DNA of 64,000 bases, taken from a virus. Lineage: Duplodnaviria; Caudoviricetes. Position 1 is the stretch's first letter, and the number at the start of each line of letters is the position of its first letter. Of this stretch, positions 35,587 to 59,205 are shown piece by piece. Made by a program: the position numbers and the translations under genes. The notes under the pieces are model-generated. The model was not told where the DNA came from. It saw only the letters and a program-made list of their open reading frames with translations, and ran no database searches. The stretch is from the IMG/VR virus record IMGVR_UViG_3300010260_000160, positions 2,000 through 65,999 of that record; one strand, 5' to 3'.

Positions 35587-35600
35587 AATTGTGTGAGGGT

Positions 35601-35633
35601 ATGCGGGCGACCGCTTTAAGTGGTTGCCCGCAT
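35601..35633 (+). other. GC-rich hairpin between target gene 1 and the TR
   Basis: ATGCGGGCGACCGC-TTTAA-GTGGTTGCCCGCAT: 14-bp stem whose two imperfect positions are both G:U pairs. Confidence 0.75.
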
Positions 35634-35639
35634 TGAACT

Positions 35640-36039
35640 CAAAAATTATAAAATGGTGGATTCTCCCAAGCTCCCGTGTGGTGCTCCGGTCGAACAACAA
35701 CGCGAACGCGAATGGCGGCGTTGCGTATGCGAATGCGAACAACGATTCGTCGAATGCGAACACGAACTATGGTTCCCGTCTTGCAAACAATGAGTAAGAG
35801 TAATAAATAAAAAGTGTTAGACGCTTTCGGGACATATCTTTGTCACAGAAGATAGTCTCTAATAGATGTGCCTATTGAATGGGAGGACGAGTTCCTCCGT
35901 ATCGATGCACAGGGAGATGAACCACGGCAACAGCGGCAGGATGCCGGAAAGCCGAAAAATATACCACGAGGTAGGGTTTAGTAGGGACCACAATGGTCAG
36001 CCGAACAAGCTGTGCCTCAAAAATTGAAGGCGTTAAAAA
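35640..36039 (+). ncRNA. Putative DGR RNA (TR plus downstream spacer); boundaries approximate
   Basis: Stretch with no recognisable protein gene, containing the TR and a 250-nt spacer with local hairpins (GGAGGA-CGAGT-TCCTCC, 35882-35898). DGR RNAs are known to include the TR and flanking spacer. Confidence 0.55.
35669..35788 (+). repeat. DGR template repeat (TR)
   Basis: AGCTCCCGTGTGGTGCTCCGGTCGAACAACAAC...AACTATGGTTCCCGTCTTGCAAAC; 11 AAY codons in the target frame; lies immediately upstream of the RT. Confidence 0.97.
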
Positions 36040-37482: not shown

Positions 37483-37986
37483 ATGATTAGAGCGTCATCA
37501 GGAGCGGAGCCGAAATACCTCCGCATTGCCAACAAGCGTCTCGGGAAGTTCGCTGTGGCCTTTGATGTGAAAAGGGAAGACGATGGTAATTTCTCTTTTA
37601 TGGAGGAAACATTCGAACACCTTCCGTCAAAGGAAGACATTCGCCAAGTCATAAACGCATACTATAATGAGCAGACAGAAAAGGACATCATTACTGGCTT
37701 TGTTTATGATGGCATTCCTGTCTGGCTTTCAAGTGAGAATCAGTTCAATTTCAAAGCTGCCTTTGACCTTGCCATTCAGACATCAGGAAGTTCGCTTCCG
37801 GTAAAGTTCAAGTTCGGCACTGATTCGGAACCGGTGTACAAATCATTCAGCACTGTTGAGGAATTGAAGGATTTCTACACGAAGGCCATAGCCTATATTC
37901 AGAAATGTCTTGAAGACGGATGGCAGAAAAAGGATTCTGTCGATTATACAATTTATGTACTTTCTAAAGAGGAGGATTCGCTATGA
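37483..37986 (+). CDS. DUF4376-like protein, putative tail-fibre chaperone
   Basis: VWLSSENQFNFKAAFDLA...LPVKFKFG...IQKCLEDGWQKKD pattern; located next to the tail/DGR cassette. Confidence 0.55.
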   Translation: MIRASSGAEPKYLRIANKRLGKFAVAFDVKREDDGNFSFMEETFEHLPSKEDIRQVINAYYNEQTEKDIITGFVYDGIPVWLSSENQFNFKAAFDLAIQTSGSSLPVKFKFGTDSEPVYKSFSTVEELKDFYTKAIAYIQKCLEDGWQKKDSVDYTIYVLSKEEDSL

Positions 37987-41904: not shown

Positions 41905-44616
41905 TTACCTTGGTTGATTGGTAAGTTTTGGTGTGTACTGTATGCTGCTTCCCCAGATGCTTTCATCGTGCGTAAGAGAGCAGATGAGCGCAATACGGAA
42001 GTATTTGTAAGGAGTGCCACGGAAATGCCGCAGATAATGGTCCTTGCTTGTATAGACCGGGAACCACTTCTTAAGGTCACGCGAGCCATACAACACTGTC
42101 GCTACATGGCCCTTCTCGAAATTGCCTCTGGTTATAATCGTATCAATGGTCTTGTTTATATCCTTCAGGGAGCCATCAAGTTTGATAGGACGCGTTATCA
42201 GGAATTGGCTGTCGCATACATCTCCCTCCTGAGAATAGTCCACGAGCAAACTTGTGCGTGTCATTGCATACGCTTCCGGATAAGAATTTACCTTTGACCG
42301 TATATTTGAATAAATCATTCCCCAGCTTTTGCTTTCGAGTGAATAAACATAGGCATATCCATATTCTGGATTGAAAATGATGATTTGCTGACGAGTGTAC
42401 GCATATAACATCTCGCATCCTTTAAGATAATCAGTAGTAAACTTCTTTTCAGGAAACAACGGATGATTTGATTCGTCAAGAAATATCATCATCTTCTTTA
42501 TCTCAGTATATAAAGGAAATTGTGTGAAGTCAAAAGGCTCCTCGTTATTATCAACAGTATCAGTGATACATTGCGTCTGTGAGCCAGCAATAAGCATTAT
42601 TCCTCGGTCTGTTGAGAATAGTACAGCACTGTCAATCTGCGTAATTGATTTTGCATTTATACAGACATCACGAGTAATTGGCTGTCTTGCGGAGAATGCT
42701 CCAGTGGTAGCAGAAACTTCCAATGCCCATACTCCATCAGATGAAAAGGCATATAATGGGAACTGACCGAACTGGCCTTGTGATAATGCTTTTGCTGCAG
42801 AGGCCATTCCAATTATATGGCCTGTTCCAACTGTATTGATGCCGAGCAAAGGAAAAACGAATGGATTGTTTATCTCAGAAGTATAAATTTTGTTTCTTAT
42901 TTCAATTATACGGTCTTTTGTAGATGATGGTGTCGGTGCACTTGAAGATTGAGTGACCGCTTCATCTATCGTCTTCCAACCACCAAAATAAAAGGCACCA
43001 TTCAAAAAATCGTGTTTTGTCAATTGTACTTCATAACAGTAACTGAAATAGTTATATAACACTAATACCGCCTTATACGCATTTATATTAGGATAATATA
43101 GAAACAGAAATGGTGTCTCATATCCGAATTGACTACTTCCGCCATATACAACAATATCCCTTCCATCCTGCTTTATATAATAATATACAACTGCAGTATA
43201 TCTGAAATCATCCCAAGCTGTAGGTGATGCTTCAGAATATCTCTTTATAAGTCCATTTGTATAATTAAATAATGTTGCCGCACTCGGGCCACCATATAAC
43301 TGTTTTTGCAGATTAGCAATATTCAGCCTTGAATTATAAGGGAAAGCATATTCAGGCAGAAGTTTGTCATGACTATCATAGTCATCAGTCATCGCTTCTC
43401 TTGTAAGCAAAGATTGTAGATAATCTTCCGCAACCTCTATAACAGTACGACTGGTTTTCAGGTCATTAAGTTTAACACTTGTCAACAAATAAAAACTTGA
43501 ACAATCACGGATTGCTTGTTTAACCTCCTCCTCACTTTTACTTGGCAGCATTAATCTTCCAGCAGGATATGAAAAATTGGTTGGGTCATAAGTGAATGCA
43601 TATAATTTGCTAAACTTGTGTTTCTGATAGCGCAGTGGGTATGTTGAGGTGCTGGCAGCCTGGTTCGTATGTTTACAAACACAATAGCAATCAGAATCGT
43701 CCACTTTTACAAATTGTGTACATTCTCCGTTCTGGTCATAAGTGTAAATTGGAGCTGAAATAAAAAAATCTACTGAGGTAATAATATCAGACCAATTCAA
43801 TAATGAACTCAACTGAGAACTGTTAACAACTGCGTAATCGAGTTTGTGACACATACTAACGACTCGTAGTGTTGCATTAGTATAAGAACCCTTCCCTGTT
43901 ATATGTTCATAAAAAACCTGCGGAGCAAGGTCAGAAGAACAAATCATAAGCACAGGTGCAGAGTGCCGTGTAAGGGTTCCATCATAAAGACGATATGCAT
44001 ATCTGACAAGAAAAGGATATATGAATCGCCCTTTATTCGTGGATTCGTCCGCAATAAACTTATTTACTTTTGCAAGAACTTGATTTGTTATTTTAGTCTT
44101 GTTAGTATCAGAGAACTCGTTGAATATGCTTCCTTCGGAAATCGAATCGAATGAAATTGAAAATGAATCTGTCCTCGCCATTTCTCCCTGTAAGCCAAAG
44201 GATATGTCCAGTTCGGGCATAGTGCTTCCAAGATTCTTATAATCATCATCTTTCCATAGAAGATAATGCATTCCGTTTGTTGTCAAAACACAGAGAGTAT
44301 TGCCTATTGATGTAATCTGGATTATAGATGAGTTCGAGAAACTTTTCGAAATCTGATGATAAGTGTTTTCATATGATTCTTCTATCCAGTCCATGACATC
44401 AGAGACTCGACTTATACCGATAAAATGTTTGAACTTGTTTGTCTGATGTACATATAAAACATCTCCCGAAAATGACACAACCTTTTTAGGCCCGGATACA
44501 GGTCGTAATGAACCTTTTTCCGGCATTAAATTCACAACTGCCGCAAGGTCTCCGTCCTGACACTCATAATCTGATGGCTGCGCCGTGTATCCGTTGTATT
44601 TCAATTCTGTTTGCAT
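41905..44616 (-). CDS. Putative tail nozzle/stabilisation protein
   Basis: About 900 aa, beta-rich (likely propeller); starts MQTELKYNGYTAQPSDYECQDGDL; C-terminal GQFGQFPLYAF and RHFRGTPYKYFR segments as in short-tailed Bacteroidota phages. Confidence 0.6.
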   Translation of the reverse strand: MQTELKYNGYTAQPSDYECQDGDLAAVVNLMPEKGSLRPVSGPKKVVSFSGDVLYVHQTNKFKHFIGISRVSDVMDWIEESYENTYHQISKSFSNSSIIQITSIGNTLCVLTTNGMHYLLWKDDDYKNLGSTMPELDISFGLQGEMARTDSFSISFDSISEGSIFNEFSDTNKTKITNQVLAKVNKFIADESTNKGRFIYPFLVRYAYRLYDGTLTRHSAPVLMICSSDLAPQVFYEHITGKGSYTNATLRVVSMCHKLDYAVVNSSQLSSLLNWSDIITSVDFFISAPIYTYDQNGECTQFVKVDDSDCYCVCKHTNQAASTSTYPLRYQKHKFSKLYAFTYDPTNFSYPAGRLMLPSKSEEEVKQAIRDCSSFYLLTSVKLNDLKTSRTVIEVAEDYLQSLLTREAMTDDYDSHDKLLPEYAFPYNSRLNIANLQKQLYGGPSAATLFNYTNGLIKRYSEASPTAWDDFRYTAVVYYYIKQDGRDIVVYGGSSQFGYETPFLFLYYPNINAYKAVLVLYNYFSYCYEVQLTKHDFLNGAFYFGGWKTIDEAVTQSSSAPTPSSTKDRIIEIRNKIYTSEINNPFVFPLLGINTVGTGHIIGMASAAKALSQGQFGQFPLYAFSSDGVWALEVSATTGAFSARQPITRDVCINAKSITQIDSAVLFSTDRGIMLIAGSQTQCITDTVDNNEEPFDFTQFPLYTEIKKMMIFLDESNHPLFPEKKFTTDYLKGCEMLYAYTRQQIIIFNPEYGYAYVYSLESKSWGMIYSNIRSKVNSYPEAYAMTRTSLLVDYSQEGDVCDSQFLITRPIKLDGSLKDINKTIDTIITRGNFEKGHVATVLYGSRDLKKWFPVYTSKDHYLRHFRGTPYKYFRIALICSLTHDESIWGSSIQYTPKLTNQPR

Positions 44617-44626
44617 AGCATATAAA

Positions 44627-44667
44627 CAAAAATAACTCCTGCGGCTAATGTAAATCAACCGCAGGAG
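44627..44667 (-). promoter_or_regulatory. 9-bp hairpin followed by a T-rich tract that also reads as a -7 box
   Basis: CTCCTGCGG-N14-CCGCAGGAG (44636-44667), then on the minus strand TTATTTTTG containing TATTTTTG (44634-44627), 10 nt before the ATG at 44616. Confidence 0.6.
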
Positions 44668-44709
44668 AATACCATTTTATCTGTTACTTTCAAGATCCAG
44701 GGCAGCCTG

Positions 44710-44934
44710 CTAAAATGGCAAATCTGAATCTTCGCCCGGAGTAGGTTTGATTGTATCTTCAATCTTGAACAGGTCCAGTTTCACAGTCTGAATTGTTTCG
44801 AGGATATATGCCTCCAAATCGTGTGTCTGTGTGAGACGCTTTGCTTCTTTCAGCGCACTTTCGTAAGTGCCGTGTTTGTATTTGGGAGGATTCTGACCTT
44901 CCAGATACACCATCCAAAATTTCTTCTGTGCCAT
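44710..44934 (-). CDS. Conserved small phage protein
   Basis: MAQKKFWMVYLEGQNPPKYKHGTYESALKEAKRL; start moved to 44934 to avoid overlap with the upstream gene. Confidence 0.6.
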   Translation of the reverse strand: MAQKKFWMVYLEGQNPPKYKHGTYESALKEAKRLTQTHDLEAYILETIQTVKLDLFKIEDTIKPTPGEDSDLPF

Positions 44935-45011
44935 AATTATTGATATTAGCTTGAACTGGTAAAGAATTAGCAATCTGACAACGGAAAATGAAGTTGTCAA
45001 ACGGTCCGGTG

Positions 45012-45413
45012 TCACTTCGCATCTTCCAATGCTATTTTTATTCGTTGTTCGAGAACCTCAAGATATTTCGTCATTGCTTCCTCCTGCTGTTTCATCAATT
45101 TCTTAGTGCGCTCCGGAAAAGAATCAAACCAAGGCGTATTAGTGAAGTCACGCAGTTTGTTCAATCTAACTGATAGTTCACTTCTTTCAACCTTGAGCCT
45201 GTCATTAAAATCTTCTACGCACTGATAGCTTTTGTCAAAGTCTGAAGGGAAAAGGTGTGAGTAATTTCCATCTTCATCTTTAATCAGGTACACCTTTTTT
45301 GTTTTCAATATGGCATGAATGGGGTCTATTTCAATGTGACCAACAATCTTTTCTGCCTCCTCAATTGAGACCAGAGCTGCCTCAACTGTTTTTGTTGTTA
45401 TATACTTTTTCAT
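45012..45413 (-). CDS. crAss001_48-related/Gp49-like phage protein
   Basis: MKKYITTKTVEA N-terminus and DRLKVERSEL...KL..F...QEEAM.KYLEVLEQRI C-terminus. Confidence 0.55.
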   Translation of the reverse strand: MKKYITTKTVEAALVSIEEAEKIVGHIEIDPIHAILKTKKVYLIKDEDGNYSHLFPSDFDKSYQCVEDFNDRLKVERSELSVRLNKLRDFTNTPWFDSFPERTKKLMKQQEEAMTKYLEVLEQRIKIALEDAK

Positions 45414-45414
45414 A

Positions 45415-45678
45415 TCAACTTTTCGTTTTGTTATTCAATCCTCCAAGCATCTTTGCCTGTGCGGACATTTCAGAGTTTTTTGTAAGTTTCTTCACCTCGT
45501 CCGGCATACTTATCATTGCTGCCGCAGAAGACATCACGACTGATTTGAAATTTTCATCGCGTGTCATCATAACAAGGAAGCTGGAGACAAGCCTTTTCAA
45601 TTCCAAATCATTGTTTATGTGACATTCAACACAAGATATTCCGTCATCACCTATATCTATTTTCAATACAGTCTTCAT
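45415..45678 (-). CDS. Hypothetical phage protein
   Basis: ORF in the tightly packed minus-strand operon; ATGA overlap with the upstream small gene. Confidence 0.5.
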   Translation of the reverse strand: MKTVLKIDIGDDGISCVECHINNDLELKRLVSSFLVMMTRDENFKSVVMSSAAAMISMPDEVKKLTKNSEMSAQAKMLGGLNNKTKS

Positions 45679-45833
45679 ATCATTCCGCATTTGTATTCGT
45701 CATAGTGATATTTATGCATGATAATATCGTGAAGCACGGCCCGTCCCTCTGCTGTCTCCGCCTCATCCTCATTGATGTCTTCCCAGCGCATTTGCCGAGC
45801 ACTTGCCACCAATGCTATATCGTGTTCATTCAT
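45675..45833 (-). CDS. Small hypothetical phage protein (52 aa, below the ORF-track cutoff)
   Basis: MNEHDIALVASARQMRWEDINEDEAETAEGRAVLHDIIMHKYHYDEYKCGMI; fills the gap and is coupled to the next gene by ATGA. Confidence 0.55.
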   Translation of the reverse strand: MNEHDIALVASARQMRWEDINEDEAETAEGRAVLHDIIMHKYHYDEYKCGMI

Positions 45834-45901
45834 ATATTCAAAGAATTTGATTTGTATTAAAAGAATCCCCCGGAAAATTCCGGGAGATTCTGACAGATGA
45901 C

Positions 45902-46279
45902 TTACTCTTTCGATGCAGGCTTGCTTGAGCTGCGTTTCTTCGTAGCAGGTTTAGCGTTCTTGTCTTCTTCCGGAGCAGAAGTAGTCTCACTCTCATTTTG
46001 AGGCTTTGAAAGCCTGATGTGGTACAGCTTGTACAGCATTGTATCAGCATACTTGAAAGCGGTTTCTACATTTGCTTCAACTGCAGAAACATCTGTATTA
46101 GGATTCTTAAGCAATGCATCGAGTGCAGTCATTGCGTAATCCTCACGCTTGTCAGTTACGAATTTCTGGAATTGCTGACGCTGTTTCTCCTCTGCCATTT
46201 CTTTGGCAATTCTTTCACGATAAGCCTTCTGGCTTTCGTTGGCATCCTTTGCAGGGATGGTTGGCTTTTTGTTCTGCAT
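45902..46279 (-). CDS. Hypothetical phage protein
   Basis: 125-aa ORF on the operon strand with an A-rich initiation region. Confidence 0.55.
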   Translation of the reverse strand: MQNKKPTIPAKDANESQKAYRERIAKEMAEEKQRQQFQKFVTDKREDYAMTALDALLKNPNTDVSAVEANVETAFKYADTMLYKLYHIRLSKPQNESETTSAPEEDKNAKPATKKRSSSKPASKE

Positions 46280-46317
46280 AAATGATTGATAAAAAGGTTA
46301 ATAAAAAGTTGATGTTG

Positions 46318-46614
46318 TTATGTGAATAACATTGGTTCTTCTGAAAGTTGCTCATCCACTTTCTTTTCCAGTTTCCGGGATTCAGCCAGGAGTTGAGATG
46401 CCAAAGGCGTATATCCGTGAAGTTTCCGCTCTTTGAAATATGCGGCCTGCTTGTTCCTCATCTCTTTCACATCATTCCGAAATTGATTCTGGTCCGCATC
46501 AATGCTCCCGGCAAACTCCGTGAGTAATACCTCCAGCTCGCCACAATCCATCCACCTGGATCCGGAATGTTGCGACACATATTCATCAATGAGAGATTGT
46601 GTTTTCTGATTCAT
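46318..46614 (-). CDS. Hypothetical phage protein
   Basis: 98-aa ORF with a 4-nt overlap to the upstream methyltransferase. Confidence 0.55.
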   Translation of the reverse strand: MNQKTQSLIDEYVSQHSGSRWMDCGELEVLLTEFAGSIDADQNQFRNDVKEMRNKQAAYFKERKLHGYTPLASQLLAESRKLEKKVDEQLSEEPMLFT

Positions 46615-47330
46615 AAGTCAAATAAACTTGGTTGTTGAATCACTTTATTGCCTATTCGCTCAATTCCGAGGCATTGCTGCTCGAATCTCTTGTTCATGGC
46701 ATCAAAGTATTTCTTGTCTATTTCGCAGCCGTAGAAGTCAAATCCAAGCCCGTAGGCGGCAATCCGTGACGAGCCGGAACCAAGATGCGTATCAAGAATC
46801 TTCCATCCCGGTTTAGCAAATTTTTGCAGTAGCCAAACATACAAAGCAACAGGTTTTTGTGTAGGGTGTATTCGCACTTCATTCAATGCCTTGTTGCCCT
46901 GCATCACACGGCCTTCTGCAACGCTCCTACCTTGACACATCCCGTTCCACATAAACGGGAAGAGACGGACAGAATCAATGAGGTCGGTTGCGGCAATCTC
47001 ACAATCAGAGAAACTTGAACTCTGATTGCATTTGTCCCAAACTATTCTTCCTGGATCAAACTGAAAATCGTAGTAGTTGCAGCCCCAAACAATGTAATGC
47101 CGGCTGACGCGCTTCAATTCGTTGAAATACTTTTCATCAGGAACTGTCCATTCTTTTGAGACACCGTAATTCACTCGTCTAACGCCTATGGTGGATTCTT
47201 TCTTACCATAATAGTCACGGCGTTCCGGGCCACTGAAATATGGCGGGTCCACCACGGCAAGGTCGAAGAAACCATCCGCGATGTCCCGCATATATTCCAT
47301 ACAGTCCAGATTGTAAACTTCGCTTATCAT
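46611..47330 (-). CDS. DNA amino-methyltransferase (N6A/N4C, beta class)
   Basis: DPPY (motif IV) precedes HPTQKP and ILDTHLGSGS (motif I). Confidence 0.92.
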   Translation of the reverse strand: MISEVYNLDCMEYMRDIADGFFDLAVVDPPYFSGPERRDYYGKKESTIGVRRVNYGVSKEWTVPDEKYFNELKRVSRHYIVWGCNYYDFQFDPGRIVWDKCNQSSSFSDCEIAATDLIDSVRLFPFMWNGMCQGRSVAEGRVMQGNKALNEVRIHPTQKPVALYVWLLQKFAKPGWKILDTHLGSGSSRIAAYGLGFDFYGCEIDKKYFDAMNKRFEQQCLGIERIGNKVIQQPSLFDL

Positions 47331-47923
47331 TTTGAAGCGTCTGCGGATTTTGTCTTCCGTCCGAAGGCAAAATCCGCCCAGATGTCAACGAACTGTTGTC
47401 CGGCATAAATGGCCAATTCCCGTGTTTTGAAGGCAAGACGGGAACCATAGTTCGCGGCCGCATTCGCCGAATCGCTGAGCGCATCCGCACACGCAACGCC
47501 GCCACACGCGCTCGCGTGGCCGCCCGACCGGAGCACCACACGGGAGCGTTCATCTTCTGTCATTTCATCTATCTCCTCTTGTGTGTACAGGTAGAACCAA
47601 GGGAAATAACGATATTCGTCTGTGGTGAATTGAGGCTCCCAGCCCTCATTAAGAACTTTGGCGATTGCCTTGAGTTTGATGTACGCAATCTCGTCCGGTT
47701 CGATGTCGAAGCCATCACCTCTCTCACAGTGGTCAAGCATTCGCTCTACTGGGTCATAGCCCAATTCTCTTACCACATCATCCCAGCACTTAACGCGCTC
47801 TGTAATCGGTCTGGTGTCTTTCGGCTCCTCGTTGAGTTCCGGAATAAGCATAGCAAGAATCCTCTTGCCTGATTCGCTGGCTGCATTGTACGCAGCTTTG
47901 GCATTTTCAAATTTGATTTCCAT
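47327..47923 (-). CDS. Small C-type-lectin-fold protein; DGR target 2
   Basis: 198 aa; contains VR2 (SRVVLRSGGHASACGGVACADALSDSANAAANYGSRLAF); no signal peptide or transmembrane segment seen. Confidence 0.88.
   Translation of the reverse strand: MEIKFENAKAAYNAASESGKRILAMLIPELNEEPKDTRPITERVKCWDDVVRELGYDPVERMLDHCERGDGFDIEPDEIAYIKLKAIAKVLNEGWEPQFTTDEYRYFPWFYLYTQEEIDEMTEDERSRVVLRSGGHASACGGVACADALSDSANAAANYGSRLAFKTRELAIYAGQQFVDIWADFAFGRKTKSADASK
47343..47377 (-). other. Hairpin/cruciform downstream of VR2, within the coding sequence
   Basis: GCGGATTTTG-c-CTTC-GGACG-GAAG-a-CAAAATCCGC on the sense strand: 15-bp stem, one mismatch, 5-nt loop. Confidence 0.7.
47429..47548 (-). repeat. DGR variable repeat VR2 (remote)
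   Basis: Aligns without gaps to the TR: 17 mismatches at TR adenines plus 1 T>G in the first 116 nt. Same GCCTTC ending as VR1. Confidence 0.95.
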
Positions 47924-47938
47924 AATGATGTTGTGTTA

Positions 47939-48211
47939 TTATAAATGAATGATTTCTTTCGCTTCATGGCAGATTTCCTCCAGTTTGGTTTTTAACTCGC
48001 AAACGCACTTGTTATAAGTTTCTGGGTCACGATTAAATAGTTCATCACCATAATACTTGTCAATTATTTTTTCGATTTCGCATTCATAGACACCTTCAAT
48101 CCAATCACATACATCGCGTGCGTTTTTCTTTATGGTCTGAACTCCGAAGCGGTCAAGCCACCATTGCTTAATATCAGACCATTGAATAATCTTAATAGTT
48201 ATTGTTTTCAT
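47939..48211 (-). CDS. Hypothetical phage protein
   Basis: 90-aa ORF filling the gap on the operon strand. Confidence 0.45.
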   Translation of the reverse strand: MKTITIKIIQWSDIKQWWLDRFGVQTIKKNARDVCDWIEGVYECEIEKIIDKYYGDELFNRDPETYNKCVCELKTKLEEICHEAKEIIHL

Positions 48212-49217
48212 TTATAGAATATTAAATTGTTTCAAGTATTCTGAACAAGAAAAATTTTTCCGCGGCCTATAATCCGCAAAAGACATCTTTTCAAATATCA
48301 TTTTCTTGTTGACCCAACGAGCCATATCCTTTTGCCATTCCGGAACAGGTCTGCCCGGGTTATCCGGGTCTCTGAATGGCTGTGCGTATGGATATACCCT
48401 GCTTTTGTGATGCTGCTTTATAAGTTCCTGATTCTTTCTCCAGAAGTGATTTATACGATTGTAGCACTCGACAAAGTTGTTATTGAGCATTGTGTATAGG
48501 AAATACTGCCCTTTGAATCCGAATGAGTTTATCAATTCAATGGCCCTTTCGCATTCTCTTATCTGACCTGGAGTATCGCAACCGAACCTGATTCGGTAAT
48601 CAATCCACTTGATTCTTGATAGCAGTGCAGCATTCTCATCATTAACGAGCCGAGCATCCAGTGCCTGATTGAAGTCTATTCGGTAACCTCTGTCAATGAT
48701 TTTCTGAAGTTGTTTTAGCGCATAATCACCTGCTGCAAGTATGTTGTTGTCCATAAGCACGGCTTTGGTGCGTCCATCAACACAGATGTCATCAATGTCC
48801 ATATAAGGCTTTACCCCCCCCCTCTTTACGAGGAACTACACACCATTTACAATGGTTCGGACAACCTCGTGTTAGAAAACCGTAGGCAGTATCCTTCGGA
48901 ATCAAAGGATATATTGAGTAATCGAGTTTTGCTCTGTCAATGTATTCAGGCAGTTTTGAATGTATATCATAACCAGTTCCACCTTTAATGACTTCATCCG
49001 CATCTACATAGAAATCAATATCCGGAGAGAAGTTGAAGACTTTTGAGATATATACTCTATCGCAGTGTCCGGTAAACATCGGCTCATACCAAACGACCTC
49101 ATCACCATTTGTCTTATGCCAACCGGCTATCTTGCAAAGCGCAATGTTCGGATAGATGGTCGCGCCGAATTTCTTTTTCTTGGCGTGACCATCTACATCA
49201 ATAAGTCCTATTTTCAT
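48212..49217 (-). pseudogene. Radical SAM protein, frameshifted at a G9 tract
   Basis: The 5' part (48792-49217) has TRGCPNHCKWC (CxxxCxxC); the 3' part (48212-48802) has LMDNNIL and DFNQALD. G8 would read through as KEGGVKPYMDI. Confidence 0.85.
48814..48822 (-). repeat. Poly-G tract (G9 on the coding strand)
   Basis: C9 on the plus strand, exactly at the frame break. Confidence 0.95.
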
Positions 49218-49286
49218 TTTGAACTGATTCTATCGCTTGGAAAATTCTGAACATAACCTGAGGCACAATGGCATTGCCATAGGCTT

Positions 49287-50132
49287 TTATTGATTCATTT
49301 CTCCATTTGTGGAAACCCAGGGAAGTTCTGTCCATAATCTTGGAAAGCCCATCATCTCTTGTGTGAACAGGGGAGACAGTCGGAAAGTGATTCCACCAGG
49401 TTCCTTCAAACCAAGTATCGTGGGAAGCGTGCTCAACTGGTCGTCCCTCGTCATTCCATTCTTGCGAACCATAGCATCCGGATTGTACGGAGGCTGATAG
49501 TCTCTCGCGGAAGGTGTCGGCAGAAGACCGCTGCCGGCCAATGCCGAAAGGCTCTGCCCCATCTGGGAGTTCGGATTGTATGTGTTCGTAAATTTGTCGC
49601 CCTCTCTTGCTGTCGGTGTTGGCAGGAGATCCAGACGGATGAATTTCTGCTGACCGTCCACATTGACTTTGAGACCTTGCGTCTCCGGTGTCGGAAGCAT
49701 CAGACCTCTTTTCTGCGCGTAACCGTTGGCTATTTCCTGAGACAGTGTTCCGGTGCTGCTCGTCTTTGCCGCCGAACGCGGCAGGCTGTTCTTTCCATCG
49801 AAGGCCGTTGGTGTCTTGAGCATTATGTGCGATGAAGTACACTCTGTCTCTTCGGTGCGGTGCTCCGACAGCCGCAGCCGGTATAAGAATCGGCTGGACT
49901 TCGTATCCGATTGCCTCAAAATCTTTGCAGATGCGTTCAATGGTGAAGGATTCCTGGAGTCTGTATCTGTGAATACTGTCTCCCTCATCGAACAAAGTTG
50001 CTTCACATCCCAGGTCAGTGAGTATCCCACCTTCGACCATAGTGGTGATTCCAGCAACATTTTCACCAACGACCCAAGTGGGCCTGATTTCCGACACTGC
50101 TCTGAACATTTCTGGCCAGAGATAACGGTCAT
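49287..50132 (-). CDS. Nested out-of-frame ORF, putative beta subunit of the C5 methyltransferase
   Basis: 281 aa, entirely inside the alpha gene on the same strand; four [L/K]xTP-type repeats and a terminal RLSPLFTQEMMGFP (motif IX-like). Confidence 0.75.
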   Translation of the reverse strand: MTVISGQKCSEQCRKSGPLGSLVKMLLESPLWSKVGYSLTWDVKQLCSMRETVFTDTDSRNPSPLNASAKILRQSDTKSSRFLYRLRLSEHRTEETECTSSHIMLKTPTAFDGKNSLPRSAAKTSSTGTLSQEIANGYAQKRGLMLPTPETQGLKVNVDGQQKFIRLDLLPTPTAREGDKFTNTYNPNSQMGQSLSALAGSGLLPTPSARDYQPPYNPDAMVRKNGMTRDDQLSTLPTILGLKEPGGITFRLSPLFTQEMMGFPRLWTELPWVSTNGEMNQ

Positions 50133-50139
50133 CTTTATA

Positions 50140-50148
50140 CCCCCCCCC
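50140..50148 (-). repeat. Poly-G tract (G9 on the coding strand)
   Basis: C9 on the plus strand, exactly at the frame break just after motif IV. Confidence 0.95.
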
Positions 50149-50478
50149 GTTTTCCTGCATAGGAAAAAGGCTGGCAGGGGAATCCTCCGGTAAGAACATC
50201 AATGTGTCCGCGCCACTTTCTGAAATCCGTTTTTGTGATGTCATCATAACTGACACTTTCTGGGAACCAGTATTCAAGCACTTTTCGCCCGAATGGATTT
50301 ATCTCGCAATGAAATACATTCCTCCATCCAAGAAAAGCGGCGGCCACTTCCGGACCGCCGATACCGCTAAAAAGGCTTGCGTGATTCATTTGTATTTTCT
50401 AATCGAATTGAGTTTAAGGGAGTGAAGTGCAGAAAGCCTCCCCATTTTGTTAATAATCACAGCTGCACTTCTGTCGGT

Positions 50479-50538
50479 TCAGCAACCTTTGCCGCCGCCC
50501 TTACCGCCTTTGCCTTTGGTTGTTTTCTTACATCCCAT
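50479..50538 (-). CDS. Candidate 19-aa Lys/Gly-rich micropeptide
   Basis: MGCKKTTKGKGGKGGGKGC-stop, on the operon strand within an otherwise empty 196-nt gap. Confidence 0.4.
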   Translation of the reverse strand: MGCKKTTKGKGGKGGGKGC

Positions 50539-50585
50539 AGCATCAAGATTTAATTGTTAAACATTAGATATATCCCATACGGGAG

Positions 50586-50987
50586 TTAGTCTTCATCGTC
50601 ATACTCGTCGTCTTCGGAGCTGCGTTCCGGCAGGGAGTTCACATATTCGATGACTTCCTCCGGGGTCATCTTTTTTCTCGGGAGCCTCTCTGCCCATTCT
50701 TCGTTAGCGTCGTACAAAAAAACCATCCCAGGCTTGTACAGCCTGAATCCTTTGTTTGTCTGGAGCTCATATTCTACGACCTTGTAATCGTCAAAGAACG
50801 ACAATAACTCATCAAATGCGTGAATTTTTCCAAGCAGGAACTGCCTCGTGTTATACTCATTCCTTTCGTCCTTGACCGCCTTTTCTGCGGCCTCCTTGCC
50901 TCTCAGGATGTAGTCCACCATACCGGACATCTTGTTACGGAATCCGGCCTGAGAATCGTGTAACTTATAGTATTCTGTTTTCTTCAT
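50586..50987 (-). CDS. Hypothetical phage protein
   Basis: 133-aa ORF with an acidic tail; 4-nt overlap with the upstream gene. Confidence 0.55.
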   Translation of the reverse strand: MKKTEYYKLHDSQAGFRNKMSGMVDYILRGKEAAEKAVKDERNEYNTRQFLLGKIHAFDELLSFFDDYKVVEYELQTNKGFRLYKPGMVFLYDANEEWAERLPRKKMTPEEVIEYVNSLPERSSEDDEYDDED

Positions 50988-51352
50988 ATCCTTTCTCCTA
51001 ATTTGATAACAAAATATTGCTTACCTGGCTCGGCTCCCCATTCTGGGTTGCCATAACCGATTAAAGAATCTTTGATTATAAAAGTAATAGTATGATTGCT
51101 GTATCCACGATGGAAACATACATAAATATATCCTCCTGCTATCTTTGACAGAGATTGAAGATTCTCACACTGATAAAATTGACAGCGAGGTATTGGATTA
51201 GGCTTATACACCTCTCCTACACCACACCATTGTCTGCATTTAAGTATCCGTTTAATCCAGTATGGAGTTATCTCCCTGTATTCCTCCTTCTTTTCGCCTG
51301 AGGCAATCATGTCGTACCACTTGCGCTTGAGTATCAAATGTAGTGTCTTCAT
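50984..51352 (-). CDS. ASCH/PUA-like domain protein
   Basis: LHLILKRKWYDMIASGEKKEEYRE motif. Confidence 0.7.
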   Translation of the reverse strand: MKTLHLILKRKWYDMIASGEKKEEYREITPYWIKRILKCRQWCGVGEVYKPNPIPRCQFYQCENLQSLSKIAGGYIYVCFHRGYSNHTITFIIKDSLIGYGNPEWGAEPGKQYFVIKLGERI

Positions 51353-51552
51353 AATGTTCGAATTTGCATTATTAGAGCAATCACAGAGAAAATCATTGAT
51401 GCGGCAAATATAAATATGTATATGCCGGATTCAATATATAAGCCTTTATTGTCTTTCCATTTGGTGTCTCTCAATGTTCGTAGTCGTAATAGTATTAACA
51501 ACATCAGCCATACAATCCATAGCACCGTAATTAGTATAGACTTACATTTCAT
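51349..51552 (-). CDS. Small two-helix membrane protein
   Basis: 67 aa with two hydrophobic segments; 4-nt overlaps with both neighbours. Confidence 0.5.
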   Translation of the reverse strand: MKCKSILITVLWIVWLMLLILLRLRTLRDTKWKDNKGLYIESGIYIFIFAASMIFSVIALIMQIRTL

Positions 51553-51917
51553 ATCCTTTCATCCTTTACCTTTTCAAAGTAAAATATAACTCTCTGCACA
51601 TCTTCCTTGATAAGCCCATACTTGAGAGCAAGCCTGTAGTCGAATGGCCTGCGGACATTGCGCATCAGCATTTCGGTCAGGTTGTTCCGGAATGTCTCAA
51701 GGTCATTCATGCGCTTATAGTAATTGCACATTCGGCAAGACGGATTAAGATTGTCGATGTCATCGCTTCCTATCTCGTGCTGGTGCCACTTCTCGTTGTT
51801 GCGGTATTTCGGGACAATGTGGTCAACCTGCATATCTTTCATTTCCAGCTCGCATCCGCAGTATGCGCAGTGGCCATCAAACTTGTTATATACAAGTGTA
51901 CGAGTTCTTTTATTCAT
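51549..51917 (-). CDS. HNH endonuclease
   Basis: CAYCG...VDHIVP...NLNPSCRMCNYYK. Confidence 0.9.
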   Translation of the reverse strand: MNKRTRTLVYNKFDGHCAYCGCELEMKDMQVDHIVPKYRNNEKWHQHEIGSDDIDNLNPSCRMCNYYKRMNDLETFRNNLTEMLMRNVRRPFDYRLALKYGLIKEDVQRVIFYFEKVKDERI

Positions 51918-52186
51918 TATATTGTCACTTCATAAGTTTCTGGACCAGGGAAACGACTGCGTTTTACTCGGAAACCTTCTTCACGAAGCCAATTCATAAC
52001 TAATGCTTCGTATTTTGTGGGAACCTCTATTCCGTTATGCATGTGAAATTTTTCTATACGGCATAACAGCATAAATGATGCATACCCGTTTCTCCTTATT
52101 TGACCTACGATGGCATCAATGAATTCCTGTTTTCCAACCGGACACTTTTCATCCAGCTCTATTCGTAAACTTTCTGCTGCTGTCAT
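51917..52186 (-). CDS. Hypothetical phage protein
   Basis: 89-aa ORF coupled to the HNH gene. Confidence 0.5.
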   Translation of the reverse strand: MTAAESLRIELDEKCPVGKQEFIDAIVGQIRRNGYASFMLLCRIEKFHMHNGIEVPTKYEALVMNWLREEGFRVKRSRFPGPETYEVTI

Positions 52187-52193
52187 ATTTTTA

Positions 52194-52697
52194 TTATTTA
52201 TCTGAAATTACTATCTGTTTCGGCAGCAGATTCCAGCAAAAGAAACTGCTGCTGAATGTAATCTTGTTGTTGACGATTCCGTTATTCAGAAATTTGATTC
52301 TGTTACGGAACATAAGAAGCTGTAAATCTCTCTCCTTGAATAAGACTTTCGGTGCACTGTCATTAAGCCAGGTATTTGACATAAGGAGTGCAAACGGCTT
52401 GTTGAATGACAATGCCCTTTCAAAAATCTTCCGTTTGTTTGTGAAAGGTGGATTTGATACCATTATATCCCAATGTTCCGGCTCAAAATTAAAGAAGTCT
52501 TGTCCGTAGTCTATATGGGTGTTAATGACAACATATCCATTCTGGTTGAGGACTTTTACGAACTCGCTCTGCTGGTCATCAAACGGGCACCAGATAATCT
52601 TATCCTTCGGTAGAAATGTCATTATCTCCTTCACAACATACGCAGGAGTATAGCATTCATCATTGTTGCCCTTGCTATACAGAATCCGTTGGCTCAT
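52194..52697 (-). CDS. Small adenine methyltransferase-like protein
   Basis: DECYTP, WCPFD and VSNPPF motifs; start moved to MSQRI (52697), directly after the upstream stop. Confidence 0.75.
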   Translation of the reverse strand: MSQRILYSKGNNDECYTPAYVVKEIMTFLPKDKIIWCPFDDQQSEFVKVLNQNGYVVINTHIDYGQDFFNFEPEHWDIMVSNPPFTNKRKIFERALSFNKPFALLMSNTWLNDSAPKVLFKERDLQLLMFRNRIKFLNNGIVNNKITFSSSFFCWNLLPKQIVISDK

Positions 52698-52698
52698 A

Positions 52699-52926
52699 CT
52701 ATCTGTCTTCTCGTCCATAACCATCCAGAAGTTGATAATATGTTGAGTTAAGTGTTTGACCAATCTTAATTCGTCCTGCCCCGGACAACATACGAGCCTG
52801 CACATGAAGTTGTGCAGCCGTCATTGTCTTGCATCGGGTAAGGATTTCAATTTCGAGCGCATAATCGGGAAGGATGCGTCTCGCTTTCTTCTCTGCTGTG
52901 ATTTCTTTGATTATGTCGATGAGCAT
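52699..52926 (-). CDS. Small hypothetical protein, possibly winged-helix
   Basis: 75 aa directly after the replication initiator; ends GRIKIGQTLNSTYY. Confidence 0.5.
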   Translation of the reverse strand: MLIDIIKEITAEKKARRILPDYALEIEILTRCKTMTAAQLHVQARMLSGAGRIKIGQTLNSTYYQLLDGYGREDR

Positions 52927-53987
52927 GGTACTGCAATATATTGTAACGGTTTCCCTTTAAGTAGCGGACTGATGATAGGCTTGACAATTTCAACATTCTC
53001 TCGCAGGAACTGAATGAGCCGTTCCGAGGCATACAACTGATTGTTACAGACCTTCCCCAGATACTCCGAATAGTTTATCCAGTTGATATTGTCACGAACC
53101 ATATCTGTCAAGATGTCCTCAGACACATTATGTTCATATGCAAAGATGTCGAACAGTTTCTTCCACGCATCAAAGAAGTCTTTCTTGTCCTTCTTGAAGC
53201 GGACATCTTGGATGACATTCTTATTGTTATCCATCTGCTTCCACTCCAAACAGGCTGCAAGTCGTGTCGTAGAAGATAACTTTGCCCAACCACCAGTGCG
53301 AGCGTGCATCAGTTCATTGTTTCGTATGAATTTATCAAGCTGCTCCTCCGGTTTGAGGAAATTTGCAAAGAAGAAATGCGACAGAATCCTCAATTCGTCA
53401 CTGAGAACTCTTTTATTCTTAGGTTGTCCCTTCCTTGTGATTGTCGCACCAGGAAAAGCGGTTGATACACTCTTTGATGTCTTTGATTGCGCAGGAACAT
53501 CTGATGGTTTCTTCTCCTCCTGGATCTTATCTTTGTTTTCAGCCTGCGGATGCACTTCATCCTCTGCAAGAGAGATAACCTTGACATTAGCATATTTTGT
53601 CCTGACATCAGGTATCAGCATATATTCACGATACACTTGAACCTGCCTGCGAGACACGGCTTCAAAGAAACGCTTCTGTATGCCACGGGATGTAAGTATC
53701 TCGTACTTTTCATACATTGTCCGGTCAAAGAACTCCCGGGACAGACTGCTCTCAACGATTTCATCCAATTTCTTCAAATCGAAGTCCTTGCCACCTATAC
53801 GCTTTACAAACAGTTTACGCTCGTCCTCTCCCCAGTGGCAATAGTACCCTTCCGAATCGTAAATCTTGCTTATGATGCGTAGCAGTACATAAGAGCCAAG
53901 ATAACCGTGGTCCACCTCCACGAGAGCAATCTTGTCATCATCAAAGAAGTTCGTGTTGAGTGGGAAATATTCAATACCATTCTTCAT
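52911..53987 (-). CDS. Putative replication initiator (DUF4373/Lin1244-like N-terminus)
   Basis: GIEYFPLNTNFFDDDKI...KIY...GYY and ILTSRGIQKRF motifs. Confidence 0.8.
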   Translation of the reverse strand: MKNGIEYFPLNTNFFDDDKIALVEVDHGYLGSYVLLRIISKIYDSEGYYCHWGEDERKLFVKRIGGKDFDLKKLDEIVESSLSREFFDRTMYEKYEILTSRGIQKRFFEAVSRRQVQVYREYMLIPDVRTKYANVKVISLAEDEVHPQAENKDKIQEEKKPSDVPAQSKTSKSVSTAFPGATITRKGQPKNKRVLSDELRILSHFFFANFLKPEEQLDKFIRNNELMHARTGGWAKLSSTTRLAACLEWKQMDNNKNVIQDVRFKKDKKDFFDAWKKLFDIFAYEHNVSEDILTDMVRDNINWINYSEYLGKVCNNQLYASERLIQFLRENVEIVKPIISPLLKGKPLQYIAVPCSST

Positions 53988-54412
53988 AACTGTGTCAATA
54001 TGCTATGTAGATAATCGTTGATTTCTTTCTGAAAATCATCAAGAGAACGGCATACGACATATTTGTAGCCGTATTGCTCAATGTGCTGCTGCCAATGCTT
54101 TTGAGATTCGCTCTGCTTACCCTTGTCGGTCTTCATCTCAATGAGAAGACCATAATAGCCGTTGCTGGCGACAAGTAGGATAAGGTCTGAAACACCTGCA
54201 AGCACACCTTCGGCTTTGAGTTTGCCGGCCTGTGCTTTTCCTCTTTGTCCTCCGTTTGGGACGGCAAATAGGTTAAGTGATAATTTGCTGTACTGGTATC
54301 GGAACCATTGCACACAGGCGACCTGGATCTGATGCTCAACATCAGAAGGAGGTCTCCGCTGCTTTGAGTTGACTTCCGCAAGAATCTTTTCGTAAACTGA
54401 ATTATTATTCAT
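53984..54412 (-). CDS. VRR-NUC domain nuclease
   Basis: EHQIQ...FAVPNGG...GVSDLIL...IEMK..KGKQSESQ. Confidence 0.88.
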   Translation of the reverse strand: MNNNSVYEKILAEVNSKQRRPPSDVEHQIQVACVQWFRYQYSKLSLNLFAVPNGGQRGKAQAGKLKAEGVLAGVSDLILLVASNGYYGLLIEMKTDKGKQSESQKHWQQHIEQYGYKYVVCRSLDDFQKEINDYLHSILTQL

Positions 54413-54423
54413 ATAGTTCCCAA

Positions 54424-55833
54424 TTAGTTGTCATAGTCTTCAAAGAACGCGTCCATCAATTCATCGAAATATGCCTCGTCAGTCGGGATGTCGTCATCAG
54501 AGTTCATTATCTGGTTTGCGATGGATTTCTTCTTATGGATTATGTCGTACAACCTTGTGTCTATCGTATTCCGGCCCAAGAGATAATAACAAGTCACATT
54601 ATCCTTCTGACCTATACGGTGTGCGCGGTCTTCACACTGGCAACAGTCAGCATAGGTCCACGGCAGTTCAATGAATGCGACATTAGATGAGGCTGTAAGA
54701 GTGAGACCTACACCGGCAGCCTTGATTCCGCAGATAATCAGTTTTCTGCTGCCCTGCTGGAAGCTGTCCACAGCAAATTGTTTCTGCTGCATACTTTCGC
54801 GTCCGGTTATTGACACGGCTTCTGGAAAGGCCTTGCTGATTTCGTCAACTATCTCGTGATGGGCGCAGAACAATATCAGAGGTTTGTCGCTTTCCAAGAA
54901 TACACGGATGAAGTCAACTGTCTGTTTGACCTTCCCTTTCCCTGACAGGGACCGAAGCGTCATAAACTTAATCAGAGCCTTCATCCTCATCTTACGCCGT
55001 ATCTCTCTGTCAGTGCAATTCTTGTATTCCCGAAGATACTGTGCGAGGTCTGACGCTGCAAGGCAGTATTCCTCACGGTTGGAAATGTCTATAATCAAAT
55101 CCATTCTTGTCTTGTCTGGCAACTGCGTCAGGACTTTTGATTTCTCCCTGCGAATCATACATCTGCTGTACAACTCTCGTGACAGCACATCAAGATTTTC
55201 CCCACTTCCGTAGTCCTGCATAAACTTCGACATCCCTCCAAACTCATTCAGCCTCTCCATTATTGAGAGCTGCGAAACAAGGTCCCCAGGACGGTTTACA
55301 ACCGGTGTTCCGGAGAGAAGAATTATCCATTCCTTTCCGCTGGCAATTCCCTTGGCAAACTTTGTCTGCTGCGCTCCTGGATCCTTCACTCTGTGGCTTT
55401 CATCCATAATGACAGACTTGAACATCCGGATATGAGAAGAAAACACCACATCCTTTACTCTGAATGTATCCTTCGTCCCGTGAATATCGAGCACAAAGAA
55501 TTTCCGAAGGCTCTCATAATTCACGATTGCGACATTGAACATCTTCATCTGGAGGAGATACGGCCAAGTGGTACGGACAGTATCATCCAATACCAATGCC
55601 TTTTTGTTGGTGAATTTCTCGAACTCACGCTGCCAGTTTATCTTCAGAGATGAAGGGCATATCACAAGGCAGGGATATGCGTCCGCTATATCAACGATTC
55701 CAATGCTCTGCAATGTCTTTCCAAGGCCAGGCTCGTCACCAATAAACAGACGCTTCCAAGCAAGGCCCTGCTCGATGCCTTCGCACTGGTATTCGTATGG
55801 CTGTACTTTAAGGTTATGCTTCAATTCTTTCAT
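54424..55833 (-). CDS. SNF2-family helicase (HARP/SMARCAL1-like)
   Basis: GDEPGLGKT, DESH, LSGTP and QCEDRAHRIGQ motifs. Confidence 0.92.
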   Translation of the reverse strand: MKELKHNLKVQPYEYQCEGIEQGLAWKRLFIGDEPGLGKTLQSIGIVDIADAYPCLVICPSSLKINWQREFEKFTNKKALVLDDTVRTTWPYLLQMKMFNVAIVNYESLRKFFVLDIHGTKDTFRVKDVVFSSHIRMFKSVIMDESHRVKDPGAQQTKFAKGIASGKEWIILLSGTPVVNRPGDLVSQLSIMERLNEFGGMSKFMQDYGSGENLDVLSRELYSRCMIRREKSKVLTQLPDKTRMDLIIDISNREEYCLAASDLAQYLREYKNCTDREIRRKMRMKALIKFMTLRSLSGKGKVKQTVDFIRVFLESDKPLILFCAHHEIVDEISKAFPEAVSITGRESMQQKQFAVDSFQQGSRKLIICGIKAAGVGLTLTASSNVAFIELPWTYADCCQCEDRAHRIGQKDNVTCYYLLGRNTIDTRLYDIIHKKKSIANQIMNSDDDIPTDEAYFDELMDAFFEDYDN

Positions 55834-56264
55834 TTGAATCTCTCCACTTCATCAATGATTTCCTGCCGGGTACTACCTCGCAGATATTTTGCGAGAATGA
55901 CATCTATGCTGCGCTGATAGAACCTTTCAAATTCAGTTTCATCCATAGCTTCGAATGATATGCTTTTCGGAATGACAACCTGCCTACCCCCGTGCCAGAC
56001 GGTATTGGCGTAGCCAAGGTCCAGCTTGAGGCAGACCGCCATATCATCAATGCTGTAGATGTCGAGCATCCTATGAACGCGTTCTGGAAGATTGTCAAAT
56101 GTCAAACGGACAAGTGCCCAGAATTTTTTGTGAAATTCATAGTTCCTTGGTTTGGTGATTGTGCAGAGCACATCTTCGCCAATCTTCAAGCGGCATTTCT
56201 CATCATAGTCGCTGTCATACATCGGAATGAGTCCGCATTCAGTAACCCGGCAGTAAATCTTCAT
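55830..56264 (-). CDS. DUF1367/NinB-like recombination accessory protein
   Basis: PRNYEFHKKFWAL...PKSISFEAMDETEFERFY. Confidence 0.75.
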   Translation of the reverse strand: MKIYCRVTECGLIPMYDSDYDEKCRLKIGEDVLCTITKPRNYEFHKKFWALVRLTFDNLPERVHRMLDIYSIDDMAVCLKLDLGYANTVWHGGRQVVIPKSISFEAMDETEFERFYQRSIDVILAKYLRGSTRQEIIDEVERFK

Positions 56265-56273
56265 TGATAACTT

Positions 56274-56936
56274 CTATTTGTTCAAGTTGAGGCACCAATA
56301 CCAGAAAGCAAGTTCCTCATACTTCTCTCGGCCCTTATTATAGATTTCGTCCCCACGATATATGTATTTCTTGAAAACGAGGTTGTTTTTTTTGCTGATG
56401 GCATAAATGAAATCCCTGTCTGTATTCTCAATGTCCATATACCAGGCACGGCTCCGGTCCCAGTCGAAAAAGTCTATTGATTCTTCAAACTCCTCCTGCG
56501 ACGCAGCCGAAGTAGTCTTCAAATCTCCGCCGAAGGCATTCGGAATCCACCAGTCCCATTTACATCTTGTGTCAAGAGTAAAACCGAACTGACCATACTC
56601 AAACTGCTGGCAGTGACGGATGGACACACGCTGCGTATCTGATATTTCAAGCACTTTTGCAAGAAATGAATCACGCCTTGCCTCCATCTTCAATGCCTTG
56701 TGCATTTCAGCCGCGTGCCTGAACTCATCTTCACTGTAAACCACATCGTCAACGGTGTGAAGGTAATAGTTCACTCTTGACGGCTCGGTGATGATTGCAT
56801 CTACAAGTGTTCCGAAACGGAAAGCGGCCTCCCGGTCCCCGAACTGCATTCGGGGATGAAGGAGGTCGCGCAGAGCTGTCAAATCGGAATTGCTCACTTC
56901 CGTCCGGTTGTAGTATTCGTCCGGATTGTGGTTCAT
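56274..56936 (-). CDS. RecE/ExoVIII-like PD-(D/E)XK exonuclease
   Basis: YYNRTEVSNSDL, FGTLVDA and RCKWDW...GDLKTT motifs; partner of recT. Confidence 0.8.
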   Translation of the reverse strand: MNHNPDEYYNRTEVSNSDLTALRDLLHPRMQFGDREAAFRFGTLVDAIITEPSRVNYYLHTVDDVVYSEDEFRHAAEMHKALKMEARRDSFLAKVLEISDTQRVSIRHCQQFEYGQFGFTLDTRCKWDWWIPNAFGGDLKTTSAASQEEFEESIDFFDWDRSRAWYMDIENTDRDFIYAISKKNNLVFKKYIYRGDEIYNKGREKYEELAFWYWCLNLNK

Positions 56937-56937
56937 A

Positions 56938-58155: not shown

Positions 58156-58173
58156 AATTTCACCATTTTGATG

Positions 58174-59124: not shown

Positions 59125-59153
59125 AATCTGATGAATTTAAGATGTTGGAAAAA

Positions 59154-59205
59154 TGGTGGCCACCCGTGTTCCGATGTGTACGGTTACCGCTCACAGAGCG
59201 TGGCC
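59154..59205 (-). ncRNA. Candidate miniature tRNA-like element ending in ACCA
   Basis: GGCCAC-[GCTC TGT GAGC]-GGTAA-[CCGT N12 ACGG]-GTGGCC-A-CCA. Confidence 0.35.

Follow-up and report, generated by a model that had tools for sequence, protein, structure and literature searches.

The window analyzed here, 64,000 nucleotides of IMG/VR record IMGVR_UViG_3300010260_000160 (positions 2,000 to 65,999), derives from a gut Bacteroides prophage or provirus that carries one DGR. A repeat of approximately 116 nt is present in three copies, the last of which is inverted and was delimited at 47429-47547 by the repeat search (Table 1 gives the bounds used for counting). Since a three-way alignment places an adenine in the middle copy at every position where the other two vary, this copy was assigned as the TR. 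Read in the frame of the VRs it gives SSRVVLRSNNNANANGGVAYANANNDSSNANTNYGSRLA, and its codons include eight AAC and three AAT. With such an AAC-rich TR, residues are randomized and stop codons cannot arise, which is the standard DGR design. All 15 mismatches between VR1 and TR are at TR adenines. An IGxxxSQ motif is visible in the translation of the reverse transcriptase (RT), RTs that are 43–58% identical to it adjoin homologous TRs in other phages, and a 167-amino-acid DUF4376 ORF comes after the RT gene.

Table 1. Positions of the DGR components, the second target gene and associated elements within the window
Feature	Position	Strand	Remarks
Primary DGR target gene, 2689 aa	27517-35586	+	Late/structural module; ends in VR1
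VR1	35404-35519	+	C terminus of the 2689-aa late-module protein
TR	35669-35784	+	27 adenines among 116 positions; 256 nt upstream of RT
DGR reverse transcriptase gene	36040-37470	+	Single 476-aa ORF after TR; RVT_1 E = 1.5e-8
N6/N4 DNA methyltransferase gene	46611-47330	-	PF01555 E = 1.2e-14; translationally coupled to the remote target gene
Remote DGR target gene, 198 aa	47327-47923	-	Member of phrog_11581; contains VR2
35-nt hairpin	47343-47377	-	In the 3′ end of the remote target gene; DNA fold z = -3.2
VR2	47429-47548	-	Approximately codons 126-165 of the 198-aa protein; inverted repeat of TR and VR1
VR2 3′ end free of adenine mismatches	47429-47449	-	Ends in GCCTTC, IMH-like

The DGR lies within a region (1-41767) that encodes the portal, TerL, a 5668-amino-acid protein, the 2689-amino-acid primary target, a holin and an amidase, of which TerL alone is not on the plus strand. 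VR2 is 11.6 kb away on the minus strand, in a gene within a long minus-strand operon (41905-61245). This operon encodes RecT-like and exonuclease VIII-like proteins, an SNF2/DEAD helicase, a VRR-NUC nuclease, a replication initiator, an HNH nuclease and several methyltransferases, together with a split radical SAM gene. The stop codon of the target gene overlaps the methyltransferase start codon by 4 nt, as ATGA. An earlier note, made from the letters of the window, had described a remote target on the opposite strand, within an early operon and with a 4-nt methyltransferase overlap, and each of these points holds: the operon is non-structural, with its genes on the same strand.

The encoded protein is 22.4 kDa, with a pI of 4.73 and a net charge of -12; the median pI of phrog_11581 is 5.0. 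As the earlier note had stated for export signals, there is no hydrophobic N terminus or transmembrane segment (the maximum Kyte-Doolittle 19-residue score is 0.82), and the protein looks soluble. Features conserved in the family are a TFEDA-x3-LG helix, an invariant NEGWEP-x-F motif, a YPWF sequence, the VR and a C-terminal pair of helices.

The match of VR2 to TR had been reported to contain 17 adenine-specific changes and one other. Recounting over 47429-47548, with the terminal CTT/AAA triplet left out, gave the same figures: 17 A-to-N changes and one T-to-G. The binomial probability that at least 17 of 18 mismatches fall on the 27 adenines among 116 positions is 2.4e-10. Comparison of VR1 with VR2 gives 15 differing nucleotide sites, which shows that the two repeats were diversified separately, also as proposed.

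Both VRs end in GCCTTC, while TR ends in GCAAAC, which is IMH*-like. As the three-base difference is identical in VR1 and VR2, it is not a product of mutagenesis; it resembles the IMH/IMH* asymmetry that gives DGRs their direction. In 11 further phage lineages, VR1 and VR2 likewise have a 3′ end in common that is unlike TR at fixed positions. Downstream of VR2, the inner 17 nt of the hairpin (47352-47368) are inverted in the sister phages L126, L128 and L129, and a 12-mer is common to the hairpin and the 3′ flank of VR1. The hairpin is a candidate cis element for homing. Since a family-wide search for a hairpin downstream of the VR gave only slight enrichment, we make this suggestion for the lineage of the window alone.

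Natural variation of VR2 and the phrog_11581 family

A large protein collection contains 14 proteins of 198 amino acids that are 88–93% identical to the target protein and one that is 73% identical. These 15 relatives, which come from public metagenomes, have 15 different VR2 peptides, no two of which are alike. When aligned, they vary almost exclusively at some 15 codons within residues 134–159, and no sampled VR2 variant disrupts the reading frame. At the nucleotide level, we compared four distinct gene sequences, including three syntenic contigs from different samples. VR2 contains 29 variable sites, 25 of which are at TR adenines, and the other 478 nt of the gene contain 22. The earlier note had held that its reading would fail if no population showed adenine-specific polymorphism in VR2; among these relatives, such polymorphism is the prevailing kind. 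A megablast search of the locus against a phage collection that may lack close relatives gave no match. From the mismatch pattern and the variation in relatives, VR2 is almost certainly a target of the DGR.

The target protein matches phrog_11581 over nearly its entire length (E = 6.6e-55, residues 1-192 against profile positions 4-197 of 200), and its C terminus also matches phrog_14959, a 2494-position profile of giant proteins such as the primary target. A family profile search over 1.84 billion representatives recovered 3182 clusters at E ≤ 1e-3, of which 423 were at E ≤ 1e-30. Nearly all are stand-alone proteins of 180–215 amino acids from Bacteroidota phages. For longer members with N-terminal extensions, no Pfam domain was found, and two of the longer members appear to result from assembly chimerism or a frameshift at the VR. 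Homologues were located at 80 IMG/VR loci and in eight cultured or GenBank records (LoVEphage, PV4-TP1, BI-TP1, BT-TP2 and Versailles among them).

Linkage of this family to DGRs is invariable among the records tested. Of 49 IMG/VR records that were searched whole, 21 encode an RT, and in all 21 the C terminus of the homologue matches a TR beside the RT, with A-specific mismatches, as well as a VR1 in the adjacent large gene. The homologue VR differs from its TR by 19 A-to-N changes and no others in LoVEphage, and by 15 A-to-N changes and one other in Versailles, so that a family member is a DGR target in 23 of 23 RT-bearing records. The RTs in this set are only 21–58% identical to that of the window, and the VRs fall into two length classes, of approximately 112–118 nt and 76–81 nt. 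In four groups of near-identical genes recovered from different samples, the variable VR sites at TR adenines number 27 of 29, 14 of 14, 14 of 14 and 12 of 12. On the genomes compared, phrog_11581 is a dedicated second DGR target in very different phages. Co-divergence between RTs and target scaffolds is weak (Spearman 0.19, Mantel p about 0.06), and we do not claim co-evolution of the two.

Five phage records that are at least 90% complete contain the gene but neither an RT nor a copy of the TR; the basic role of the protein therefore does not require hypervariation. In the DGR-less record L004, the VR still fits the TR of sister phages (nine A-to-N changes, no others), which suggests that the DGR was recently lost and the VR frozen.

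Fold searches and genomic setting

The AlphaFold model of the target protein has an overall pLDDT of 82, which falls below 50 in the VR (residues 135-160). Comparison of the model with solved structures, using Foldseek and VIA-align, gave no match, the ESM Atlas returned only unnamed phage clusters and, among the predicted viral structures of BFVD, the matches were confined to uncharacterized gut-phage proteins, some of them from crAss-like viruses. Neither the 198-amino-acid protein nor the last 400 residues of the 2689-amino-acid target had a Pfam match, whether thresholds were left at default or relaxed to E ≤ 10. Searched as profiles against the PDB, the alignments of the family and of the tail-side C termini yielded only chance matches, and hhalign against BPP-1 Mtd was not significant (probability 0.7%). 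PADLOC gave no match for the target protein. The lectin fold that the earlier note had assigned thus finds no support in Pfam, in PDB profiles, in hhalign against Mtd or in searches with the AlphaFold model. Benler et al. (2021; PMC8008677) state that a C-type lectin domain is present in both Quimbyvirus targets; for phrog_11581, the searches above did not recover one, although the family may still have such a fold.

What the family does share with tail-side targets, in their C-terminal domains, is the VR. In profile-profile comparison, the two match with a probability of 97.8% over exactly 39 VR columns, and BLASTP agrees. As the similarity is confined to these columns, a single TR-specified cassette occurs in two scaffolds that have no detectable similarity to each other.

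The neighbors of the target gene in the window, when sought beside homologues elsewhere, are not conserved. De novo clustering of neighbors identified instead an unknown 302-amino-acid protein, phrog_3657, directly upstream of the target (39 loci), a RecE/YqaJ-type exonuclease one or two genes downstream (38 loci) and, further downstream, a DEAD helicase (30 loci) and a replication initiator (18 loci). These genes are almost always on the strand of the target gene. In Versailles, the gene is located between NinB and the replisome organizer. No neighbor is conserved across the whole family, which leaves no guilt-by-association link to defense genes, and the commonest ones are recombination genes, not counter-defense genes. 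These data indicate that the conserved setting is an early recombination/replication module and not a defense island. As a separate observation, sub-threshold Atlas hints describe phrog_3657 as a single-strand annealing protein.

Possible roles of the second target

How might this arrangement work? By analogy with the BPP-1 DGR, the RT would copy TR RNA, placing random bases opposite adenines, and the cDNA would replace VR2 in trans, across 11.6 kb and on the opposite strand, with no dependence on VR1. Expression of the early recombination/replication/methylase operon would yield an acidic, soluble protein of 22 kDa, on whose conserved scaffold about 15 randomizable residues would be displayed. 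We predict that, early in infection, this protein recognizes a host factor that varies between strains, such as a defense protein. Taken whole, as a working remote homing site together with an intracellular binder of a host factor, this explanation is one toward which we lean slightly. For the proposal that the protein is an intracellular binder of a strain-variable host factor, taken on its own, the chances appear close to even or a little less. The suggestion in the earlier note of an inhibitor of variable host defense proteins is plausible. More doubtful is the proposition that phrog_11581 represents a repertoire of intracellular binders, neither lectin nor Ig, that would neutralize strain-variable immunity proteins alongside diversification of the tail tip from the same TR.

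The main alternative, which we consider unlikely, is a role in the virion, with the small protein as an accessory adhesin or second receptor-binding protein whose gene lies outside the structural module. Such a protein would join the particle and widen host or mucus binding, as is thought for other two-target phage DGRs. The great majority of known phage DGR targets are receptor-binding proteins, there are two-target DGRs in which both targets are structural (the tentaclins; PMC10743442) and the small protein has the 39-residue VR module of the tail-side target. However, the gene resides in the early/replication operon, on the strand of the recombination genes, in the window, in LoVEphage, in Versailles and at 78 IMG/VR loci, and no attachment domain, Ig domain or signal peptide was found in the protein. 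The annotation of the Versailles homologue as a "tail protein" would favor an adhesin, but the label is automated (HHpred-versus-PHROGs), and the sole similarity that we found to tail-side targets is the VR. It is also possible, if improbable, that the protein serves the lysogen, acting in the prophage as a hypervariable sensor or exclusion factor against incoming competitor phages. That the element is a provirus is consistent with this role, as is the reported diversification of putative antigen sensors by bacterial DGRs (PMC10907252). Against it, we found no effector domain and no conserved effector neighbor, and the gene is located well inside the lytic early operon, following recombination and replication genes and away from those for immunity or integration.

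Genomic context also bears on the proposal, made in the earlier note, that the protein is a specificity adaptor for neighboring enzymes, whether the N6/N4 methyltransferase or the products of the radical SAM and C5 methyltransferase genes. The ATGA coupling is kept in the sister phages L126-L130, four methyltransferase-like genes are present within 6 kb and published accounts stress proximity to methyltransferases. Across the family, however, a homologue of the methyltransferase of the window occurs at 8 of 78 loci and at none within 1.5 kb, the downstream gene varies by lineage (an exonuclease, several small unknown proteins or the replication initiator) and the upstream radical SAM gene is absent from sister phages L128 and L129. 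With methyltransferase adjacency limited to the phage lineage of the window, an adaptor is disfavored and, in our view, very improbable. Scarcely credible is the idea of VR2 as a mere bystander: a copy of the tail-tip VR left as a relic, which the DGR happens to hit and diversifies without benefit. Retention of the gene by some phages that have no DGR would fit a bystander, as would the confinement of similarity with the primary target to the VR cassette. Yet the frame is intact in every variant sampled, and the AAC-rich TR cannot create stops. Moreover, conservation of the scaffold is strong and reaches invariance at positions around the NEGWEP motif and the C-terminal helices, and all 23 RT-bearing records link the family to a DGR, across divergent RTs and two VR length classes.

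If the protein is indeed an early intracellular binder, a phage population that encounters new Bacteroides strains would already contain a ready-made set of binders. Few genomic features correlate as strongly as DGRs with broad host range and high prevalence in gut phages, a correlation that is normally attributed to tail-tip diversification only. The existence of a conserved second target, produced early and apparently intracellular, suggests that these phages also randomize something that acts after DNA entry. What had been published as a one-off curiosity becomes a defined, testable family of thousands of clusters, for which cultured members exist (LoVEphage-type prophages, PV4-TP1, BI-TP1 and Versailles) and DGR-less phages provide natural "frozen" controls. 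The context in which to expect such targets shifts from a "methylase island" to a recombination/replication module.

Comparison with known DGR systems

The DGR of the window resembles that of BPP-1 in its TR/VR pair, its adenine specificity, the position of the VR near the C terminus, the AAC-rich TR and the IMH-like end asymmetry. In BPP-1, the target Mtd is the tail-fiber tip, has a solved C-type lectin fold and is encoded beside Avd (accessory variability determinant), TR and RT. The second target of the window differs in being remote, small and encoded in an early operon, and it has no detectable similarity to Mtd. Moreover, the ORF list contains no plus-strand ORF of at least 70 amino acids between the 2689-amino-acid target and the RT (35586-36040), and thus nothing Avd-like in that size range.

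A precedent for a phage DGR whose two target genes differ in architecture is provided by tentaclins, proposed receptor-binding proteins in which Ig domains follow a C-type lectin domain at the N terminus (PMC10743442). The protein described here differs in its length of 198 amino acids, its C-terminal VR, its absence of an Ig domain and its early-operon location. A DGR that diversifies a non-virion, presumably intracellular recognition module is also found in bacterial conflict systems; there, the putative sensors are reported to be large cellular multidomain proteins with effector or NTPase domains (PMC10907252), whereas the target in the window is a stand-alone phage protein.

The closest parallels are in gut phages. 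In Quimbyvirus, a second, distal DGR target ("ORF 84/80") was described on the opposite strand among methyltransferases, with its function left open (Benler et al., 2021; PMC8008677), and the earlier note had mentioned this case correctly. The literature searched contained no experimental follow-up of this target. Quimbyvirus and LoVEphage are essentially the same phage, both being approximately 95% identical to a B. dorei prophage (CP011531.1). The distal target of LoVEphage is homologous to the protein of the window (40% identity over 96% of the length) and is similarly distant from the RT, on the opposite strand and in a non-structural region with methyltransferases. The phage backbones differ: in tblastn searches (E ≤ 1e-10), the portal of the window finds no LoVEphage record, and hence no clustering with the Quimbyviridae by this hallmark, and its only matches are the Bacteroides phages BKO1-TP3 and BS-TP4 (66%, the best) and BF1-TP2 (45%). 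In addition, the RT of Quimbyvirus/LoVEphage consists of three overlapping frames, while that of the window is one intact 476-amino-acid ORF, and the immediate neighbor of the target is a DUF2400 protein in LoVEphage and a 90-amino-acid ORF in the window.

In a 2025 Nature study of gut temperate phages, a second, distant VR in the vicinity of methyltransferases was reported for four inducible prophage species (PMC12629997), and PV4-TP1, BI-TP1 and BT-TP2 from that collection carry homologues of the target described here. That study did not define the target as one protein family or test its fold and family-wide context, and it placed the second VR near methyltransferases, whereas we find mainly recombination/replication genes. 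A broader survey was, by its own statement, unable to detect remote targets (Roux et al., 2021). To these reports, our analysis adds a failure to detect a lectin fold, the DGR-less members, the definition and size of the family, its invariable linkage to DGRs and its recombination-module context. A remote second DGR target is thus already published, and the window adds a member in a different phage backbone with an intact RT.

A putative hairpin flip at the 3′ end of the target gene

The final codons of the 198-aa target gene contain a 35-nt hairpin (Table). In the syntenic sister contigs L126, L128 and L129, the central 17 nt of this hairpin (47352-47368) are the exact reverse complement of those in the window, changing the encoded peptide from AFGRKT to VFRPKA. 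Among the aligned relatives, P0151 has the same orientation as the window, and 13 of the 14 others have the opposite one (one with a one-residue variant). On sequence comparison, the inverted center in the sister phages looks like a hairpin flip, which would suggest that the 47343-47377 structure forms in vivo. The 12-mer GGCAAAATCCGC occurs both in the hairpin 3′ arm and immediately past VR1 (35528-35539).

Features of the window
Feature	Coordinates	Strand	Remark
5668-aa ORF	2009-19015		single ORF; upstream of portal gene
167-aa DUF4376 ORF	37483-37986		immediately after RT
917-aa ORF, phrog_32516	41905-44658		end of early operon
133-aa early protein	45012-45413		PF21825 (crAss001_48-related), E = 5.9e-19
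Hairpin, 35 nt	47343-47377	-	final codons of target gene; inner part 47352-47368
Radical SAM gene	48212-49217		split in window
C5 methyltransferase gene	49198-50389		split in window

Neighboring early genes

In L126, L128 and L129, the C5 methyltransferase (PF00145), which occupies two frames in the window, is encoded by one uninterrupted ORF of 392-396 aa. A split radical SAM gene also occurs in L126, and L128 and L129 lack this gene. The split genes could reflect either real on/off variation or homopolymer sequencing errors. The PF21825 protein is labeled 'Sequestin' in the precomputed annotations of the sister contigs.

Family members in other DGR contexts

Two IMG/VR records place members of the target family in other settings. 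Record G001, rated 100% complete, carries the target gene (locus L004), and neither an RT nor a TR was found anywhere in that record. As the L004 VR still fits the TR of the sister phages L005 and L006, with 9 A-to-N and 0 other changes, these data suggest that the DGR of L004 was recently lost, leaving the VR frozen. If so, L004 would serve as a natural control strain. The 126-kb record G002, which contains locus L005, has three RT genes. Of these, the most divergent RT (28% identity to that of the window) is the one whose TR targets the family member; the two RTs closer to the window's do not target it. G002 may combine two phages; alternatively, a single phage may carry several DGRs.

The DGR cassette and known DGR phages

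The interval that separates the primary target from the RT and includes the TR (35586-36040) contains no Avd-sized ORF. In the GenBank record of the model DGR phage Bordetella phage BPP-1 (AY029185), a 'variable region 2' is annotated at 33229-33558 within bbp36, in the early region. The RT of the window is one 476-aa ORF, whereas the Quimbyvirus RT was reported to span three frames.
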